Source: Alphaproteobacteria bacterium
GTDB lineage: Bacteria > Pseudomonadota > Alphaproteobacteria > UBA828
Length of the DNA stretch: 64,000 nucleotides
Direction: 5' to 3'
Assembly (NCBI GenBank): GCA_965220745.1
Contig: CBDCQT010000013.1
Location: forward strand, 800,001 to 864,000
Every line of letters begins with the position of its first letter. Within the stretch, counting starts at the first letter, position 1. The notes under the pieces are model-generated. The model did no database searches. It was not told the origin of the DNA and worked only from the letters and a program-made list of their open reading frames with translations. This document shows, in pieces, positions 3,226 to 47,387 of the stretch. Position numbers and translations under genes: made by a program.

Positions 3226-4269
<1,044 letters not shown>

Positions 4270-4689
4270 CTACGCCTCCCGAACGGCGACGCGTCGCAGA
4301 AGCCGCGTCCGACGCCCACAGGCTCAAGGCTCCTGAGGCCGTATCGCCGTATCCGGGCTCCTAGACCGATTCGCGGCATCCTGGCAAGCAGTGCGTCTCG
4401 CCCGGCGGGCAAGGTGCACCAGGATGCGCATGGAGATGGCATCTCGATGCTGGCGCTGCCGTGGTGTCTGCTGCAACGCAAAGCAGGCGACGATGCCCGC
4501 GACAATTCGCACTTTGGACATTCACAACGAGCACCCGATCTCTCTCTCGCAGCCACCTGCGAACCGGGGGAGGAAGAATGTTCTTGCTTCTGGAGACGGT
4601 AAGCGGCATGGAGGCGCCACCCGGTATCGACTGACGTTTGCGCTATGCCAACGAGCGAGCACCGGTCCATATCCATTAGGAGGATGTTG

Positions 4690-5142
4690 ATGATTTCGAT
4701 GAAGATCAACGGGGTCAGCCGCCAGTTCCACGGCGATCCCGACATGCCGCTCCTCTGGTATGTCCGGGACGAGCTCGGACTGACAGGGACCAAGTTCGGC
4801 TGCGGCGCTGCGCTCTGCGGCGCGTGCACCATGCACGTGGACGGCGAGGCGGTCCGCTCCTGTGTCACGGCGGTATCGGAAGCCGACGGGAGCGAGGTGA
4901 CCACCATCGAGGGTCTCGATGCCGACGGCAACCACCCGGTGCAGCGGGCGTGGCGCGCGCACAACGTGCCGCAGTGCGGCTACTGCCAATCCGGCCAGAT
5001 CATGTCGGCGGCGGCGCTGCTCAACGAAAACCCCGACCCCAGCGACGAAGAGATCGTTGACGGCATGGCCGGCAACATCTGTCGCTGCGGCACCTACCAG
5101 CGGATCTTCTCTGCGGTCCGCACAGCGGCGCAGGAGGTCTGA
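4690..5142 (+). CDS. [2Fe-2S] small subunit of isoquinoline/aldehyde oxidoreductase (IorA-like)
   Basis: [30 protein letters not shown]; GGAGG RBS at 4679-4683. Confidence 0.93.
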
Positions 5143-5144
5143 TC

Positions 5145-7439
5145 ATGCTAGGCGTGCAGAACATCAGCCGGCGCACCTTCCTGAAGTCCGCCGGCGTCAC
5201 GGGTGCGCTCGTGCTCGGCGCCAACGTCGCCACCGGTTCCATGATCGGGACGGCGCGCGGCCAGAGCAACGGCAGCTCGGTCAAGCCCAACCTCTTCGTC
5301 GAGATTGCCGACGACGGGACGGTGACCATCACGTGCAGCCGCTCCGAGATGGGGCAAGGCGTGCGCACCGGCATCCCCATGATCCTGGCGGACGAGATGG
5401 AGGCCGACTGGCAGCGGGTCAAGATCTGGCAGGCGCCGGGCGACGAGACCAAGTACGACCCTGCCGGTAAGGATGCACAGAACACCGACGGCTCGCGCAG
5501 CACCCGCCACCACTTCGACGTGATGCGGCAGCTTGGCGCCGCCGGCCGCTACGTGCTTGAGCAGGCGGCGGCGAAGAAGTGGGGCGTCGACGCGAGCGAG
5601 GTCTATGCCAAGGATCACCGCCTCTACCACACCGGCACGGGCCAGTGGTTCGACTTCGGCGAGGTGGTGGACGCCGCAGCCGACATCGCGGTGCCGACCG
5701 GCGACGCCGCGCCGAAGCTCAAGGACAAGTCGCAGTGGAAGTACATCGGCCGCGACATGCCGGTGGTCGACAACTATGACATGAGCACTGGCGGCGGGAC
5801 CTACGGCGCCGACATCAGCGTGCCCGGCATGAAGATCGCCGTCGTGGCGCGCCCGCCAGTCTATCGCGGCAAGGCGAAGTCCTTCGACGCCAGCGAGGCG
5901 CTCAAGGTTCAGGGCGTCGAGCAGGTGATCGAGATTCCGGCGCTTTCCGACGCCATGCCGGCGCAGTTCCGTGCGCTCGGCGGCATCGCCGTGATCGGCA
6001 CCAACACGTGGTCGGTGATGGAGGGCCGCGACAGGCTCGTCATCGAGTGGGAGGACGGCCCCAACGTCAGGCATGATTCGGGCACCTACAACGAAGAGCT
6101 CATGGCCTCGGCGCGCGCCGGCGGCCTCGTCATCCGTGACCGGGGCAACGTCGACGAGGCGCTCGGCTCGGCCGCCCAAGTGATGGAGGCCGAGTACTTC
6201 GTGCCCTACTTCATCCACACGCCGATGGAGCCGCCGGTTGCCCTGGTAGACGCCACACAGATGCCGGTCAAGATCGTGAGCTCCACGCAGGCACCCAACG
6301 AGACGCGGCAGTATGTTGCGGAGGCGCTCGGCATCGAGAAGACCGACGTGGAATGCCAGGTGACGCTGCTGGGCGGCGGCTTCGGCCGCAAGTCGAAGCC
6401 CGACTTCGCCTGCGAGGCGGCGATCCTTTCCAGCAAGATCGGCGCCCCGGTGCGGGTGCAGTGGACGCGCGAGGACGAGATCCGGCACGGCTACTATCAC
6501 GCGGCATCCGCCCACACGCTGAAGGCGGGGCTCGACGCATCCGGCAACGTCACGGCGTGGCATCACTCGGGTGCGTGGCCCTCGCTCGTCTCACTCTGGA
6601 ACCCGGTACAGCGGACCGGCTTTCCCGTCGAGTTCGGACTCGGCCTCATCGACACACCCTATAACCAAGTGCCGAACATCCGCATCGAGAACGGCGAGAC
6701 CGACGCCATGATCCGGGTCGGCTGGTACCGCTCGGTCAACAACATCCAGCACGCCTTCGCGATGAACTGCTTCGCGAACGAGCTGGCGGAGGCGGCAGGC
6801 CGCGACCCGGTCGAGTTCCTGCTGGAGCTGATCGGCGATGCCGACGTCATGGACCTCACGGCGGACGGCGTGGAAGGCCACTGGAACTATGGCGATTCGA
6901 TCGAGGACTGGCCGATCATGCCGAAGCGGCTTTCCAACGTGCTCCGTGTGGTGGCGGAGAAGTCGGGCTACGGCAAGGCGATGCCGCCAGGCCACGGCTT
7001 AGGCATCGCGTGCCACCGCAGCTTCCACAGCTACGTGGGCACGGCCGTGCACGTCGTGGTGCGGGAGGACGGCTCGCTCCACATCCCGCAGGTTGACATG
7101 GCGATCGACTGCGGCCGCTACGTCAATCCTGAAGGGGTGCGGAAGCAGATGGAGGGTGCGGCCATCTACGGCCACTCGGTCGCGATGCACGGGCAGATCA
7201 CCACCACGCAGGGGGCGGTCGACCAGAGCAACTTCCACGACTACACCGTCACCCGCATGGACGATGCGCCTCTCGATGTGCGCGTGCACATCGTCGAGGA
7301 TTTCACGCATCTGAAGCCCTGCGGGGTGGGCGAGCCCGGCGTGCCGCCCTATACGCCGGCGCTGGTCAACGCGATCTACCAGGCGACCGGCAAGCGCATC
7401 CGCAGGCTGCCGATCGGCGATCAGCTCGAGTCTGCGTAG
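5145..7439 (+). CDS. Molybdopterin-binding large subunit, xanthine dehydrogenase family (IorB-like), Tat-exported
   Basis: Tat motif SRRTFLK; RSEMGQG, LGGGFGRK, QSNFHDY, GVGEPGVPP. Confidence 0.93.
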   Translation: MLGVQNISRRTFLKSAGVTGALVLGANVATGSMIGTARGQSNGSSVKPNLFVEIADDGTVTITCSRSEMGQGVRTGIPMILADEMEADWQRVKIWQAPGDETKYDPAGKDAQNTDGSRSTRHHFDVMRQLGAAGRYVLEQAAAKKWGVDASEVYAKDHRLYHTGTGQWFDFGEVVDAAADIAVPTGDAAPKLKDKSQWKYIGRDMPVVDNYDMSTGGGTYGADISVPGMKIAVVARPPVYRGKAKSFDASEALKVQGVEQVIEIPALSDAMPAQFRALGGIAVIGTNTWSVMEGRDRLVIEWEDGPNVRHDSGTYNEELMASARAGGLVIRDRGNVDEALGSAAQVMEAEYFVPYFIHTPMEPPVALVDATQMPVKIVSSTQAPNETRQYVAEALGIEKTDVECQVTLLGGGFGRKSKPDFACEAAILSSKIGAPVRVQWTREDEIRHGYYHAASAHTLKAGLDASGNVTAWHHSGAWPSLVSLWNPVQRTGFPVEFGLGLIDTPYNQVPNIRIENGETDAMIRVGWYRSVNNIQHAFAMNCFANELAEAAGRDPVEFLLELIGDADVMDLTADGVEGHWNYGDSIEDWPIMPKRLSNVLRVVAEKSGYGKAMPPGHGLGIACHRSFHSYVGTAVHVVVREDGSLHIPQVDMAIDCGRYVNPEGVRKQMEGAAIYGHSVAMHGQITTTQGAVDQSNFHDYTVTRMDDAPLDVRVHIVEDFTHLKPCGVGEPGVPPYTPALVNAIYQATGKRIRRLPIGDQLESA

Positions 7440-42618: not shown

Positions 42619-43601
42619 GGGTCGCTCTCGCATATACCGCTGACGGCGTGAGCCCAGGGTGACGGACCGCCGCGCCGCTGTCACGCTGTCGCCGGTAATC
42701 ATCGCAACAGAGGCCGCAATGCCTCTCTTCCACACCCACATCGTCGTCGACTGGTCGGCGCGGTCGAAGCCGAGTCCCAAGCGGAAGAGCCGGGACTCGA
42801 TCTGGTGGGCCGTTGCTCGTATTGCCCATGGCATCCAGGTGGGGGAGCCGGAATACGTCCGCACCCGCCACGACGCGCTCGACGGGCTCGCCGGTTTGAT
42901 CGCCAGCGAGCTGGACGCTGGCCGGCGGGTGCTGGTGGGCTTCGACTTTCCGTTCGGTTATCCGGCGGGTGTCGCGAAACACTTGGCGGGCGAGGAGTCC
43001 GGCTTGGCCCTTTGGGACTGGCTCGCGGAGCGCATCAAGGACGGTCCCGACAACGCCAACAACCGCTTTGGCGTTGCTGCGTCGATCAACGACACGTGTC
43101 CGGGCCTGGGTCCGTTCTGGGGCCGTCCTGGCACCTGGGATTACCCGACGATTCCGGTGCGGGCATCTGAGCGCACGGAGCAGAAGGCGCACCCGCCGGA
43201 GCGCCGCATCTGCGATGTCCGCGCGAAAGGCGCCAAGACTGTCTGGCAACTGGCCTATTCCGGGTCAGTTGGTTCGCAAATCCTCCTGGGACTGCCAGCG
43301 CTCAAGCGCTTGGTGGAGGACTCGCGCATCCGCGGCCGTGCCGCGATCTGGCCGTTCCAGACCGGCTTGCGGACGCCCGACGCGCCGGCGGTGATCGCCG
43401 AGGTCTATCCCTCGCTTCTCAGGGATGAGGTCCACGCCCTCAGGCGCGATAACGAAATTCCCGACAGCGCCCAATATCGCGACCTCGCAGATATGGCGAG
43501 GACGGGGCGACAGCCCACAGAGCGCCTCCTCTGGCGGCTGGATCGCTCAACATATTTCTGGCCTCCTCTCTTGGCTTCGCCAAGAAAAGAGGAGAGCCAT
43601 C

Positions 43602-45158
43602 ATGTCATCAACAACAACGCGCCTGTCCGGGTCTCAGCTCACGCCTGAACCGCATCCCGAGGTATTCGACGAGTATCGCGATCACTTGAGGGGCCTCGGA
43701 TTCACGGAAACGAGCGTCCGGGACCACGGTCGTTTCGTACGGCATTTCCTGATCTGGCTGGACGCAGACGACATTACACTGGATTCGATCGACGGCAATG
43801 TTGTGTCGAGCTTCTTTCGTCACGATTGCGGCTGCGATCTACCCTTCTCCAAGGCAATCCCGTCCGACTCCGGATATTCGGTAGGGCCAGTCACTCGGTT
43901 TGTGCGCTTTCTTGAGGAGACTGGGCGAACCTTCCATCTCGAGGAACTGGACCAAAACCTCGGTCTACTGGATCAGTTTCTACAGCAGTCCCGAGAAAAC
44001 GGATACAGCCACAGGGCACTTAACGTCTTTCGGTCGACAAGCCGCCACTTCATCGTCTGGCTGCACCATTTCCGTATCCCGCTCGGGCAGCTGGACAGTT
44101 CTACTCTGGAGTGCTTTTTCGAACACGACTGCTATTGCGGTCTCCCGGGAATATACACCGGTTGGCGCAAGAAGGAACGTGCCGTCTACCAACCGTCAGG
44201 CCTCACTCGGTTTATCGAGTTCTTGATTGACCGCGGCGAGGTCTCGGACGTCTTTCCATCGCCCACGGTAGCCGACGACGGCCTTGACGAGTTCCGTTCC
44301 TGGCTCCGGCAAAACCGCAACATTGGTGAGAAGACCATACGGCACTACACCGGAACAATAACCTCTCTCCGCCCAGACCTTGCAGAGAATCCCGATCAGT
44401 TTGACGTAACACAGATCCGGAACGCTCTAATGGACAAGCTCGAGAGCGCCTCTATCCGCCAAGCGAAACGAGTAACGTCCACGCTGCGCATGTACCTGCG
44501 GTTTATGGCCTCCACAGGTCGCTGCTCCGCGAGACTGGTGGGTGCTGTTCCGACCGTCGCAGAATGGAGTCAAACCACACTGCCTCGTTACTTGGCGCCT
44601 GAGATAATTGAACGGGCGATAGATTCTTGCGACCGAGCAACAGCGAAGGGGGTGCGCAACCGAGCAATAGTGCTCTTGCTCGCCAGGCTGGGCCTGCGTG
44701 CTGGAGAAGTTTCTCGCTTACGGTTGTGCGATATCGACTGGGAGAACGCACAGCTCCGGATCTGTGGAAAATCGGACAAGGAAACGGCCATTCCACTTCC
44801 GCAGGAGGTTGGAGATGCGTTGCTTGACTATATCACCAATGCCCGACCTCGCGCAGATGAGGAAAGGGTCTTTCTGTCGGTGCTGGCACCGCACCGGCCG
44901 TTCAAGGAATCAAGCGGGATCACCTACGTCGCGCGCGTTGCGCTCGAACGCGCCGGTGTCGATCGCGCCAAGTTCCGGGGCGCACATGTCTTTCGACACA
45001 GCGCGGCTACCAATCTGCTGCGATCCGGCGCATCTCTCCGCTTCGTCGGCTCCTTGCTTCGGCACGAGTCCCTGAAGACCACCGCGCTATACGCAAAAGT
45101 CGATGCGCAGATGCTTCAAGAACTCGCGCAACCATGGATCGGGGGGAATACGAAATGA
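43602..45158 (+). CDS. Tyrosine recombinase RitA-like, extended N-terminus
   Basis: LGLRAGEV, GK, HVFRH, LRH, TALYAK; GAGGAG RBS. Confidence 0.92.
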   Translation: MSSTTTRLSGSQLTPEPHPEVFDEYRDHLRGLGFTETSVRDHGRFVRHFLIWLDADDITLDSIDGNVVSSFFRHDCGCDLPFSKAIPSDSGYSVGPVTRFVRFLEETGRTFHLEELDQNLGLLDQFLQQSRENGYSHRALNVFRSTSRHFIVWLHHFRIPLGQLDSSTLECFFEHDCYCGLPGIYTGWRKKERAVYQPSGLTRFIEFLIDRGEVSDVFPSPTVADDGLDEFRSWLRQNRNIGEKTIRHYTGTITSLRPDLAENPDQFDVTQIRNALMDKLESASIRQAKRVTSTLRMYLRFMASTGRCSARLVGAVPTVAEWSQTTLPRYLAPEIIERAIDSCDRATAKGVRNRAIVLLLARLGLRAGEVSRLRLCDIDWENAQLRICGKSDKETAIPLPQEVGDALLDYITNARPRADEERVFLSVLAPHRPFKESSGITYVARVALERAGVDRAKFRGAHVFRHSAATNLLRSGASLRFVGSLLRHESLKTTALYAKVDAQMLQELAQPWIGGNTK

Positions 45159-46072
45159 CCCTCAAGACGCATGTGGAACGCTACATCGAACTCAAACGGC
45201 GCCTTGGCTACAAGTACGACGAAGCGGAAAAGCTGCTGCTCGACTACGCGAACTTTGCAGCGAAACGGAACGAGGACCTCATGCGGGTCGGAACAATGGT
45301 CGATTGGGCGGCCAAAGCGAGTTCACGCAACAGGTCGTGCACCAAGTTGGACGTCGTTCGCATTTTTGCGACGTTCCTACACGGAGAAGACCAACGTCAT
45401 GAGGTTCCGCCGCGCGATGTCTTCGGAAGGAAGACAAAGACAAGACCCCGACCGCATCTGCTGAGTGAAGGTGAGATTCGGCTCGTGATGGACGCCGCGT
45501 TGACACTGCGGCCGTTGGGATCGATCACGCCGCACACTTGGCACTACATGATCGGGCTGATCGCCGTGACGGGTCTACGGGCGTCGGAGGCCCTAAACCT
45601 GCGACTTGCCGATGTTGCTGCGGACAGCCTAACCGTGCAGCAGACAAAGTTCGGGAAGAGCCGGAAGGTTCCGCTGCATGAGGAGACTCGTGCAGCGCTC
45701 GACAACTATCTCGACATGAGAAAACGACTAGGAGGAGTGTACGATCATCTCTTCGTACGGGCGGACGGCAAGCCGCCGACGTATGCCGTCGCGCGCTATG
45801 TGTTCCTCAAACTTCTTCGTCAAACCGGTCTTCGCGCTGGTGGCAACGTGCCGGGCCCGAGCTTGCACAGCTTGCGCCATTCCTTCGCCGTGAGATCGCT
45901 CGAAAACATACCTGATGGCGCCGATCATAGCAGGCACATGCTTGCCCTTTCGGTCTCCCTTGGTCATGCCCAGGTGACCCACACCTACTGGTACATGGAG
46001 GCAACTCCGACCCTGCTCAATCAGATCGCGGAAAAAACAGAAAGTGGATACATAGGGAGGATGAAAAAATGA
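45155..46072 (+). CDS. Tyrosine recombinase RitB-like
   Basis: TGLRASEA, TKFGKSR, HSLRH, LGH, TYWY; ATGA overlap. Confidence 0.92.
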   Translation: MTLKTHVERYIELKRRLGYKYDEAEKLLLDYANFAAKRNEDLMRVGTMVDWAAKASSRNRSCTKLDVVRIFATFLHGEDQRHEVPPRDVFGRKTKTRPRPHLLSEGEIRLVMDAALTLRPLGSITPHTWHYMIGLIAVTGLRASEALNLRLADVAADSLTVQQTKFGKSRKVPLHEETRAALDNYLDMRKRLGGVYDHLFVRADGKPPTYAVARYVFLKLLRQTGLRAGGNVPGPSLHSLRHSFAVRSLENIPDGADHSRHMLALSVSLGHAQVTHTYWYMEATPTLLNQIAEKTESGYIGRMKK

Positions 46073-47070
46073 CAGCGCTGGCGACACATCTGAGTGAGTT
46101 CTTGCACCAGCACTTACCGAGAGACAGGCGGGCAAGCAAACATACAGCATCAAGCTATACCGCCACCTTCCGGCTACTAAACAGGTACATTAAGGACCAA
46201 CTCGACGAGGAAGCCTGCTTAGTAGAAATCGAGCAACTTAGCCCACAAACTATCCTGGAGTTCCTTGACTTCCTCGAGCAAGAACGGGGAAGTGGAGTAC
46301 GCACGCGCAATGCAAGGCTCGTCGCTATCAAGTCATTCTTCCGCTACCTGGAATACAAGGCTCCAGCCTGTCTGGAGCAATGCCGGCAGGTTCGTGCAAT
46401 CCCCGAAAAGCGCGCTGACGAGAAGCTGATAGATTGGTTGACCGGTGAAGAAATGGAGGTGCTTCTCGCGGTGCCGGACGTCAATACAATCTCTGGGCTT
46501 CGCGATCGAGCGATGTTGCTACTTGCGTATACGGCTGGCCTGCGCGTCTCTGAGCTCGTGTCGCTAAGGCTCGATGATCTCGATCAGCCTGATCTTGACA
46601 TCGTGCATGTGATGGGAAAGGGACGTCGTGAGCGGATTCTTCCACTCTGGAAGATTACCAAAGAAGCCTTGGCCAGCTGGCTCGACGTCCGAGAGACCGG
46701 TAAAACCGATCACGTTTTTATCAATGCTCGTGGTCGCCCGATAACCCGCCACGGCTTCGCTCATCGCCTGGCGGTACATACCAAGACTGCTCAGCAGCGG
46801 ATGCCGTCGATAGGGAGAAAGAATGTAACTCCGCACTCGCTTCGGCACAGTTGCGCGGTCCTCATACTCGAGGAGACGGACAATATCGGCTTTGTGTCGC
46901 TCTGGCTGGGTCATGCCAGCGCACAGAGCACAGCTATCTATCTGCGAGTGAATCCCAAGAAGGCGTTCGATGGGGTGGCAGGAGACTTGCCGTCAGAGAT
47001 CAGGAAGGGCTCGTTCAAGGGCGCTCGCGATCAACTGGAGCAGATTCTCAAGCACGTACCCTGTCCCTGA
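46069..47070 (+). CDS. Tyrosine recombinase RitC-like
   Basis: RTRNARL, GLRVSE, GKGRRER, PHSLRH, WLGH, TAIY; ATGA overlap. Confidence 0.92.
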   Translation: MTALATHLSEFLHQHLPRDRRASKHTASSYTATFRLLNRYIKDQLDEEACLVEIEQLSPQTILEFLDFLEQERGSGVRTRNARLVAIKSFFRYLEYKAPACLEQCRQVRAIPEKRADEKLIDWLTGEEMEVLLAVPDVNTISGLRDRAMLLLAYTAGLRVSELVSLRLDDLDQPDLDIVHVMGKGRRERILPLWKITKEALASWLDVRETGKTDHVFINARGRPITRHGFAHRLAVHTKTAQQRMPSIGRKNVTPHSLRHSCAVLILEETDNIGFVSLWLGHASAQSTAIYLRVNPKKAFDGVAGDLPSEIRKGSFKGARDQLEQILKHVPCP

Positions 47071-47151
47071 ATATGTTGAGCGATTCAGCCTCCGGAGCAG
47101 GCGCTCCGGGGGCCGTCGCCCCGTCCTCGCCATATCTGCGAGGTCGCGATA

Positions 47152-47185
47152 TTGGGAGCTATGTTGAGCTCAACATAGCTCCCAA
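47152..47185. repeat. Perfect 34-bp palindrome at the RIT right end
   Basis: ttgggagctatgttgag|ctcaacatagctcccaa. Confidence 0.95.
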
Positions 47186-47387
47186 GTGCGGGTGAACGCG
47201 AAGGCCTTCGCCCGGCTCGATGCCGCCGGCGGGCTCGCGCCCCTCTTCGCCGGCGCTCCCGGCCTCTCTACCGACGAACGCCGCCTCATCCAGACCGAAG
47301 AAGCCTGGATACTCGGCCTCGGCCACGAGGACGCTTTGAAGGGGGCCGTTGACCCGCCATAGAGGGCGGAACCGACCGAGCCGCGCC

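Follow-up and report, generated by a model that had tools for sequence, protein, structure and literature searches.

The window analysed here, a stretch of 64,000 nucleotides from an alphaproteobacterial genome (assembly GCA_965220745.1, contig CBDCQT010000013.1, positions 800,001 to 864,000), contains a RIT element, a unit with three tyrosine recombinase genes, which interrupts a host gene at position 43474. RIT elements, so called since 2009, are found in many phyla, both on plasmids and in genomic islands. We propose that this RIT possesses two core sites that are inverted and lie back to back, and that it integrates by conservative exchange within the 6-bp spacer of either one, a reading to which we assign a probability of about 75%. 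The evidence comes from the structure of the element's ends, from identical copies in mirror arrangement within the genome, from uninterrupted alleles of the target genes in relatives and from a box layout that recurs in distant RIT lineages.

Anatomy of the inserted unit

The copy in the window is referred to as c1. The unit and its terminal features are listed below together with the gene that it interrupts; boxes are named a, b, c and B, with a prime for the inverted partner.

42659..43473, + strand: 5' part of the interrupted host gene of c1, which resumes at 47185-47363
43474-47184: inserted unit, 3711 bp, comprising the arms, ritA-ritB-ritC, the 20-bp BB' pair and one 6-bp spacer
43468..43473, + strand: left boundary spacer CGCCCA, target-type at position 2
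43470..43556: left inverted arm (IRL), 87 nt, from inverted-repeat search and BLAST
43474..43483, + strand: box a' ATATCGCGAC, degenerate, at the tip of the left arm, where the inserted unit begins (from the alignment of nine ends anchored on the dyad)
43491..43500, + strand: box b' ATATGGCGAG, 7 bp inward of a' (anchored alignment; the 10-7-10 spacing is kept in five lineages)
43546..43555, + strand: third box of the left arm, c' CTCAACATAT, at its inner end
47070..47156: right inverted arm (IRR), 87 nt, with boxes c, b and a
47071-47080: inner box c of the right arm
47126-47135: box b CTCGCCATAT of the right arm
47143-47152: box a GTCGCGATAT, at the tip of the right arm
47153..47158, + strand: inner spacer TGGGAG, which with boxes a and B makes a complete core site, unused in the c1 insertion
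47159-47168: box B CTATGTTGAG, abutting B' in inverted orientation
47169-47178: box B' CTCAACATAG; the BB' pair (47159..47178) is the centre of the 34-bp palindrome
47179..47184, + strand: outer spacer CTCCCA, the crossover region of c1, with the last base of the inserted unit

The terminal inverted repeats extend in an inverted-repeat search to 91 nt that are 91% complementary (43466-43556 and 47070-47160). At the right end only, they run into a perfect palindrome with no spacer between its halves (47152-47168 and 47169-47185, 17+17 nt). No perfect palindrome in the window is longer; from base composition, some 2e-5 palindromes with arms of this length would be expected, and in 20 shuffles the longest palindrome arm was 10 nt. 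A preliminary description of this DNA, made from the sequence alone, had reported 87-bp arms with 7 mismatches and identical outer 42 bp, a one-sided perfect 34-bp palindrome at the right end and a left arm lacking the outer 12 nt, all of which was borne out by BLAST (7 mismatches), by the palindrome search and by reading of the sequence. It had also placed the box TATGTTGAG in the arms and in the palindrome; this box occurs 14 times in the 4.8-Mb genome, and 12 of these occurrences lie within three RIT copies, four in each and at the places named. Its proposal of CCCAA as the core was right in part: the crossover does fall within the short repeat beside the palindrome, but the core is better described as a 6-bp spacer between 10-bp boxes. 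The element's own spacer reads CTCCCA at this end, and the left boundary spacer CGCCCA differs from it at position 2, the mirror of position 5 in the TGGGAG orientation.

Three identical copies in two arrangements

The source genome (G000, 4.8 Mb) contains two copies in addition to c1:

C13:766700-770416, opposite strand to c1: copy c2
C5:9104-12818: copy c3

All three are 100% identical over 3689-3716 bp (BLAST), and because of this identity we consider the element, a typical RIT, to be probably active. The 24-nt centre of the palindrome, which in a genome-wide search was confined to the RIT copies, marks the RitC end of c1 and c3; in c2 it is the RitA end that carries it, and the RitC end has none. 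The complete core site at the inner spacer of c1 is found as the boundary in c2. The bases common to both boundaries are CCCAA in c1, CTCCCA in c3 and, as its reverse complement, TGGGAG in c2. The suggestion in the preliminary description that the element had integrated off-centre and is circularly permuted, the palindrome being what its two ends would make when joined, predicts just such a mirror arrangement and is supported by copy c2 as well as by the empty alleles described below. A related genome, G005, likewise carries one RIT in both arrangements, with the palindrome at the RitC end in one locus (L031) and at the RitA end in the other (L032), the two targets being paralogous. In a class-wide sample of 401 genomes, which includes few close relatives, the 20-nt box pair with at most one mismatch was found only in G000.

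Target genes and uninterrupted alleles

The unit is mobile within G000, as its three identical copies occupy different sites, each of which has an uninterrupted allele in relatives. Removal of the unit at c1 yields an open frame of 335 codons, and removal of the unit together with one spacer copy yields long open frames at all three sites. The host gene of c1 has weak similarity, below the cut-off, to a domain of PRK14495 of unknown function. Elsewhere in the genus, 9/9 orthologues of this gene are uninterrupted and read GACAGC GCCCA(G/A) GTG. The targets of c2 and c3 are two paralogous P-loop ATPase genes, which are interrupted at the same W-E-F codons; relative to the gene, the two element bodies point in opposite directions. 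The ATPase target gene is multi-copy, with up to six matches per genome in the genus, and has only sub-threshold P-loop matches in Pfam and NCBIfam, with no named family. Ten of 12 homologous loci in the genus are uninterrupted and read ...TGGGAG TT(T/C)GTC..., the two occupied ones being c2 itself and the locus in G011; the empty site of L020 reads TGGGAGATGGTC, and the empty allele of L013 agrees with the flanks of c2 over the bases shown. Insertions have the 6-bp spacer at each boundary, and the empty alleles have it once.

The target parts of the two ATPase genes in G000 lie at C13:770417-771097 and C5:12819-13490, and both gene copies are interrupted by the RIT. A third paralogue that could have served as an internal empty site was sought in this genome and does not exist, both paralogues being occupied; the 10-mer CAAACTCCCA at C12:828963 was discarded as lying in unrelated sequence.

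None of the uninterrupted alleles (10/10 of the ATPase type, 9/9 of the c1 type) contains a palindrome half, and since the 24-mer is found nowhere else in G000 either, the palindrome travels with the element. Related copies, two of 94% DNA identity (L003 and L004) and one of 98.6% (L002), are all inserted at the W-E-F site of ATPase homologues. In six of the seven ATPase-site insertions (c2, c3, L001, L003, L004 and L030) the box pair stands beside the N-terminal part of the gene; in the seventh, L002, the contig ends on that side, which is consistent with the other six.

These alleles also bear on whether the palindrome belongs to the element at all, as it might instead be a fold-back artefact of assembly or have been part of the target before insertion. 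Folding back at this palindrome does occur in de Bruijn assemblies: in run X15, one Logan contig uses it, at window position 47153, to connect the c1 flank with the reverse complement of the c3 flank, and at least four metagenome palindromes without arms (L055, L067, L073 and L121) lie between two flanks that are homologous in inverted orientation. Against such an origin, the palindrome is present at all three copies, each between the halves of one gene, and recurs in independent chromosome-level assemblies and in a finished plasmid, so that a fold-back peculiar to this assembly does not account for it; a pre-existing target sequence is contradicted by the uninterrupted alleles and by the confinement of the 24-mer. 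We regard a foreign origin of the palindrome as close to negligible.

A box layout conserved across RIT lineages

Nine natural ends from five lineages were anchored on the dyad: this element, L003/L004 (94% DNA identity to it), and L005, L031/L032 and L033, which are at 40-57% protein identity. In all nine ends the order is b (10 bp), 7 bp, a (10 bp), 6-bp spacer, B (10 bp), directly abutting B' (10 bp), 6-bp spacer, flank; each arm has an additional box at its inner end. Boxes a and b resemble B' but have degenerated to varying degrees; in L005 and G005 they match it at 7-10/10 positions. The spacers vary by lineage (TGGGAG, CTACCG, TTCCAG and CATCTT) and the boxes are conserved; in G005 the box variant TATGGTGAG co-varies, palindrome and arms having changed together.

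The origin of individual spacer bases can be followed in several copies. In c1 the spacer reads TGGGAG beside B and TGGGCG beside the flank; the spacers of L003 differ at position 6 (G vs A), and L004 has the target's A in both cores; in L033 the outer spacer is of the target type, CATCTC, vs CATCTT in the inner core. Such mixtures of target and element bases at the boundaries are as expected of a 6-bp overlap region. Half-to-half templating, as through a hairpin, was considered for the symmetric palindrome changes in L004 and G005 and rejected as unnecessary, because the arm boxes of G005 share the change and the changed base in L004 is the target's spacer base.

It had been suggested that a palindromic attP might mark one subfamily. 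The layout is not confined in this way, as it recurs in RITs down to approximately 25-40% protein identity. It is also found beyond metagenomes and close relatives. RitA-like proteins occur in 445 plasmid records; of three plasmid trios analysed, the one on a complete Paraburkholderia plasmid from a pure culture (L174) shows the layout, though its box differs (TTATGCCGAC), and has its palindrome at the RitA end.

A model with two usable core sites

Were the ends of the element joined, in a circle or in a synapse, their order would be a, spacer, BB', spacer', a'. The joined ends would thereby contain two complete cores, each with a 10-bp box, a 6-bp overlap and a 10-bp box, inverted and back to back. 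Integration would then proceed by conservative exchange with the target within either the one spacer or the other (TGGGAG), the target matching the spacer at 5-6 of 6 bases. The core that is not used would stay intact inside the element, leaving the box pair at the RitC end (c1, c3) or at the RitA end (c2). Exchange in either spacer with a matching target would produce just the arrangements observed, and would account for the box pair always following the same target flank. Were the element excised between its two direct spacer copies, the original target would result. The non-standard integration route that had been proposed earlier is not needed, each half of the junction being an ordinary-looking tyrosine recombinase core site. 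Staggered cuts at both cores followed by fill-in were rejected as the normal route; they predict a palindrome at both ends, and double-ended palindromes were seen in none of ten copies (c1-c3, L003, L004, L005, L031, L032, L033 and the finished plasmid L174). Moreover, of the seven loci from metagenomes or a viral collection that have two palindromes and assessable flanks, five have flanks that are homologous inverted copies.

The two arrangements could also arise if a single core served for integration and the element were later inverted in place, by recombination of the inner core, left unused, with the boundary at the other end. The outcome in sequence would be identical to that of integration via the other core, and sequence alone cannot separate the two. 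Inverted cores in one molecule are a natural inversion substrate, and the box pair keeps its target side whichever way the body points, wherever this can be read (c2 vs c3, L031 vs L032). The near-equal counts of palindromes at the RitC and the RitA end in metagenomes (24 vs 22 among the matches listed) fit either course of events. However, both cores must still function for inversion to take place, and this explanation, which we judge quite unlikely, is thus a variant of the same anatomy.

The abutting boxes allow another alternative, in which they form a hairpin site of the telomere-resolvase type, the element moves as a linear molecule with closed hairpin ends, and the one-sided palindrome is a remnant of resolution. 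B and B' do meet directly, without intervening bases, and no copy examined has an imperfect dyad. Moreover, Nielsen et al. 2017 (PMC5737581) describe, in the part of the article considered here, an enrichment of RIT regions in exonuclease-treated DNA, paired reads that gave no circular junction, and hairpin intermediates as a proposal. However, a long near-palindromic junction would confuse the mapping of paired reads, so that the missing circles are weak evidence. The breakpoints do not lie a few bases from the dyad centre, all boundaries being in the spacers, 10-16 bp away, and direct spacer repeats, exact empty sites and mixed spacer bases are what conservative exchange at the a-spacer-B cores predicts, while hairpin formation at the dyad needs extra steps to explain them. 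We therefore think it very unlikely that the element moves in this manner.

Metagenome palindromes and observations that weigh against the model

Several observations do not fit the two-core model easily or limit the evidence for it. The target flanks are little like the boxes, and spacer identity alone cannot account for the repeated use of the ATPase site. The copies in related genomes are not independent, and c2 and the insertion in G011/L001 may be one inherited insertion. No circular junction or excision product was found in the material searched, which consisted of contigs only, from four Logan runs: no Logan contig joins 47184/47185 to 43474 from the IRR side or exactly skips the element, and the contigs break at the 42-nt identical arm tips. 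Inexact contig joints (43266 to 47181, 43257 to 47279 and 43432 to 47297) were not used, nor was the contig depth in X15, 22.2 in the element vs 4-10 in the flanks, used as a measure of copy number or of circles. On plasmids, two of the three trios analysed (L172 and L173) are without a flanking inverted repeat of at least 20 nt.

Evidence both for and against the model comes from metagenome contigs, which were scanned for an 18-nt box pair; 80 loci of at least 116 matching stretches were analysed, with 87 palindrome centres, and the following counts hold among the matches listed. An arm-type box was defined by at least 7/10 matches at the a or b position, and a Rit gene was counted within 900 bp. 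Arm boxes were found on exactly one side of 66 centres, and on one side of four more whose other side is cut by the contig end, which speaks for the model. As points against it, no palindrome of the 87 has arms on both sides, and 16 have no arm on either side, as does one more for which the other side is cut. The nearest Rit gene is at the RitC end for 24 centres and at the RitA end for 22, and 41 have none within 900 bp. The metagenome RITs are only 25-40% identical to the element in the window.

At least two of the loci without arms, L089 and L097, contain real 26-bp inserts that consist of BB' and a second spacer copy and are bordered by the proper target flank on either side; the simple two-core model does not predict them. 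These inserts could be excision footprints, solo sites or minimal insertions. Both loci (centres 7464 and 12795, respectively), which have no RIT arms, are split IS200/RAYT-like Y1 transposase genes, interrupted within the HUH motif (...NH / HYH...). In addition, nine loci have two palindromes. Of the seven with assessable flanks, five have flanks that are homologous inverted copies and may be collapsed-repeat chimeras or the result of recombination between inverted copies; this is not so for the other two (L091 and L064). We read the four armless palindromes L055, L067, L073 and L121 as fold-back joins, although real recombination between inverted RIT copies could look alike. The contig flanks in L086, L095, L111, L163 and L165 are inverted homologues of the same target side, probably owing to fold-back or collapse. 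As the palindrome misleads short-read assemblers into fold-backs and collapsed repeats, RIT ends in metagenome assemblies need careful reading.

A broader version of the model would make the double core the working part of every RIT, used for integration in either orientation, for in-place flipping and for an occasional exit without the box pair, which would leave footprints such as those in L089 and L097, with the dyad possibly also being cut to give hairpin-ended linear molecules. We consider this extension unlikely; if it were true, the hairpin-ended linear molecules would explain how RIT DNA survives exonuclease without a mappable circle junction.

The three recombinases

The genes between the arms are as follows:

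43602..45158, + strand: ritA, 518 amino acids (aa), Pfam Phage_integrase E 2.5e-28, with SAM-like and catalytic domains
45134..46072, + strand: ritB, 312 aa from the first ATG, Pfam Phage_integrase E 1e-18
46069..47070, + strand: ritC, 333 aa, Pfam Phage_integrase E 9e-32

The genes overlap in ATGA at 45155-45158 (ritA/ritB) and at 46069-46072 (ritB/ritC), the former on the assumption that ritB starts at 45155, which is more likely than a start at 45134 and gives the ATGA overlap with the ritA stop. The catalytic residues R-K-H-R-H-Y (R, K, HxxR, H, Y) align in all three proteins, which, together with the Pfam matches, agrees with the earlier recognition of three tyrosine recombinases with intact catalytic motifs. 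RitA has a tandem N-terminal module (residues 21-110 vs 122-214, internal repeat E 8e-13), through which it may span boxes a and b. The co-oriented A-B-C order is also found by tblastn in seven related genome loci and in dozens of metagenome loci.

Comparison with known systems

Cores of the XerC/XerD-dif type consist of two inverted sites of ~10-11 bp around a 6-8-bp overlap, and their products carry either partner's bases. The RIT cores resemble these in the order box, spacer, box and in the occurrence of either partner's bases in the overlap. They differ in that two cores share a back-to-back box pair, that each core has as one half-site the degenerate terminal box of a long multi-box arm, and that the element encodes three different recombinases. 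Telomere resolvases such as TelK and ResT are tyrosine-recombinase-like enzymes that act on a perfect dyad, which they cut 6 bp apart across the centre to form hairpins. The RIT palindrome is likewise a perfect dyad; unlike in those systems, its boxes abut without central bases, and the boundaries lie in spacers away from the centre.

In its long A, B, C order, the ATGA overlaps, the catalytic residues in all three proteins, the terminal inverted repeats, the presence of several identical copies per genome and the insertion into genes, the element is like the RITs of Cupriavidus metallidurans CH34, plasmid pHG1 and sphingomonads, as far as these are described in the portions of PMC2864759 and PMC3414803 consulted. 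The two sequential core-binding modules of RitA are likewise a feature of the RITs in the part of PMC8138268 concerned with these proteins, which classes RitA, RitB and RitC among 'simple' Xer-like recombinases. The arms of 87-91 nt are unlike the 34-bp terminal inverted repeats given in the RIT entry of Table 1 of PMC10214605. Tn554, SE and GInt, as presented in the relevant sections of that article, are similar in having several tyrosine recombinases and a 6-bp core exchange without classical target duplication; they differ in having no long terminal inverted repeats or palindromic junction, a fixed orientation and a fourth protein (Srap/TnpC/GinD). The same sections describe the evolutionary relation of these elements to RITs as unclear.

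Circle formation by RITs had been taken as established in the preliminary description, for which we found no backing in the portions of the RIT literature covered (PMC10214605 and PMC5737581); the circle in our model is inferred from the joined ends. Likewise, no description of a one-sided box pair, a double core, a spacer or a target rule was found in the portions of the RIT literature covered, a scope that does not extend to Ricker et al. 2013, Van Houdt et al. 2009 or supplements. In the sections of PMC10214605 available, RIT transposition is said never to have been reproduced, and target specificity, the empty site and the mode of movement are listed as not tested. The locus and its relatives now supply the boxes, a 6-bp exchange region and a predicted junction, and a defined natural target is in hand, the TGGGAG of the W-E-F codons in a P-loop ATPase gene, of which both occupied and empty alleles are available. 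The value of the work is thus an explicit and testable site model, with which the open question of RIT movement becomes experimentally simple, and the element itself, with three copies that are 100% identical and probably active, is a candidate for cloning.

Nested, miniature and rearranged elements

Other mobile elements are associated with some of the RIT copies. In L001, a 2.6-kb element at positions 3263-5868 (the same in G011: L026 and L030) encodes a transposase of the IS91 family (Y2_Tnp and Zn_Tnp_IS91) and, upstream of it, an open reading frame of 402 aa that is 26-30% identical to RitA/RitC (tblastn). It lies precisely between the outer spacer CTCCCA and box a', thereby parting the RIT palindrome from the left arm, and in L029 the end of the same element directly abuts box B' of a different RIT type. 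Because its ends adjoin CTCCCA and a' in the one case and B' in the other, this suggests that the integrase of the 2.6-kb element uses RIT-type sites. The RIT in L001 contains, in addition, a 1.5-kb insertion (L001:9462-10964) with 19-nt inverted ends and a DDE_Tnp_1 transposase, situated immediately past ritC where the right arm has its inner end.

L064 (centres 7004 and 7501) and L095 (centres 751 and 1158) hold gene-less miniatures of ~400-500 bp that have two RIT-type arms and a box pair at each end, like RIT derivatives in the style of miniature inverted-repeat transposable elements. The closest plasmid RitA, with 44% identity, is encoded in L171 (NZ_AP023258.1 255788-263266), where the recombinase genes that come after it have the opposite orientation; this locus is rearranged or nested, and its record has four RitA-like places. 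Finally, the second-longest perfect palindrome of the window, at 3822-3849 (14+14 nt, GGAGCCGATGGCGG followed by CCGCCATCGGCTCC), is without RIT boxes.

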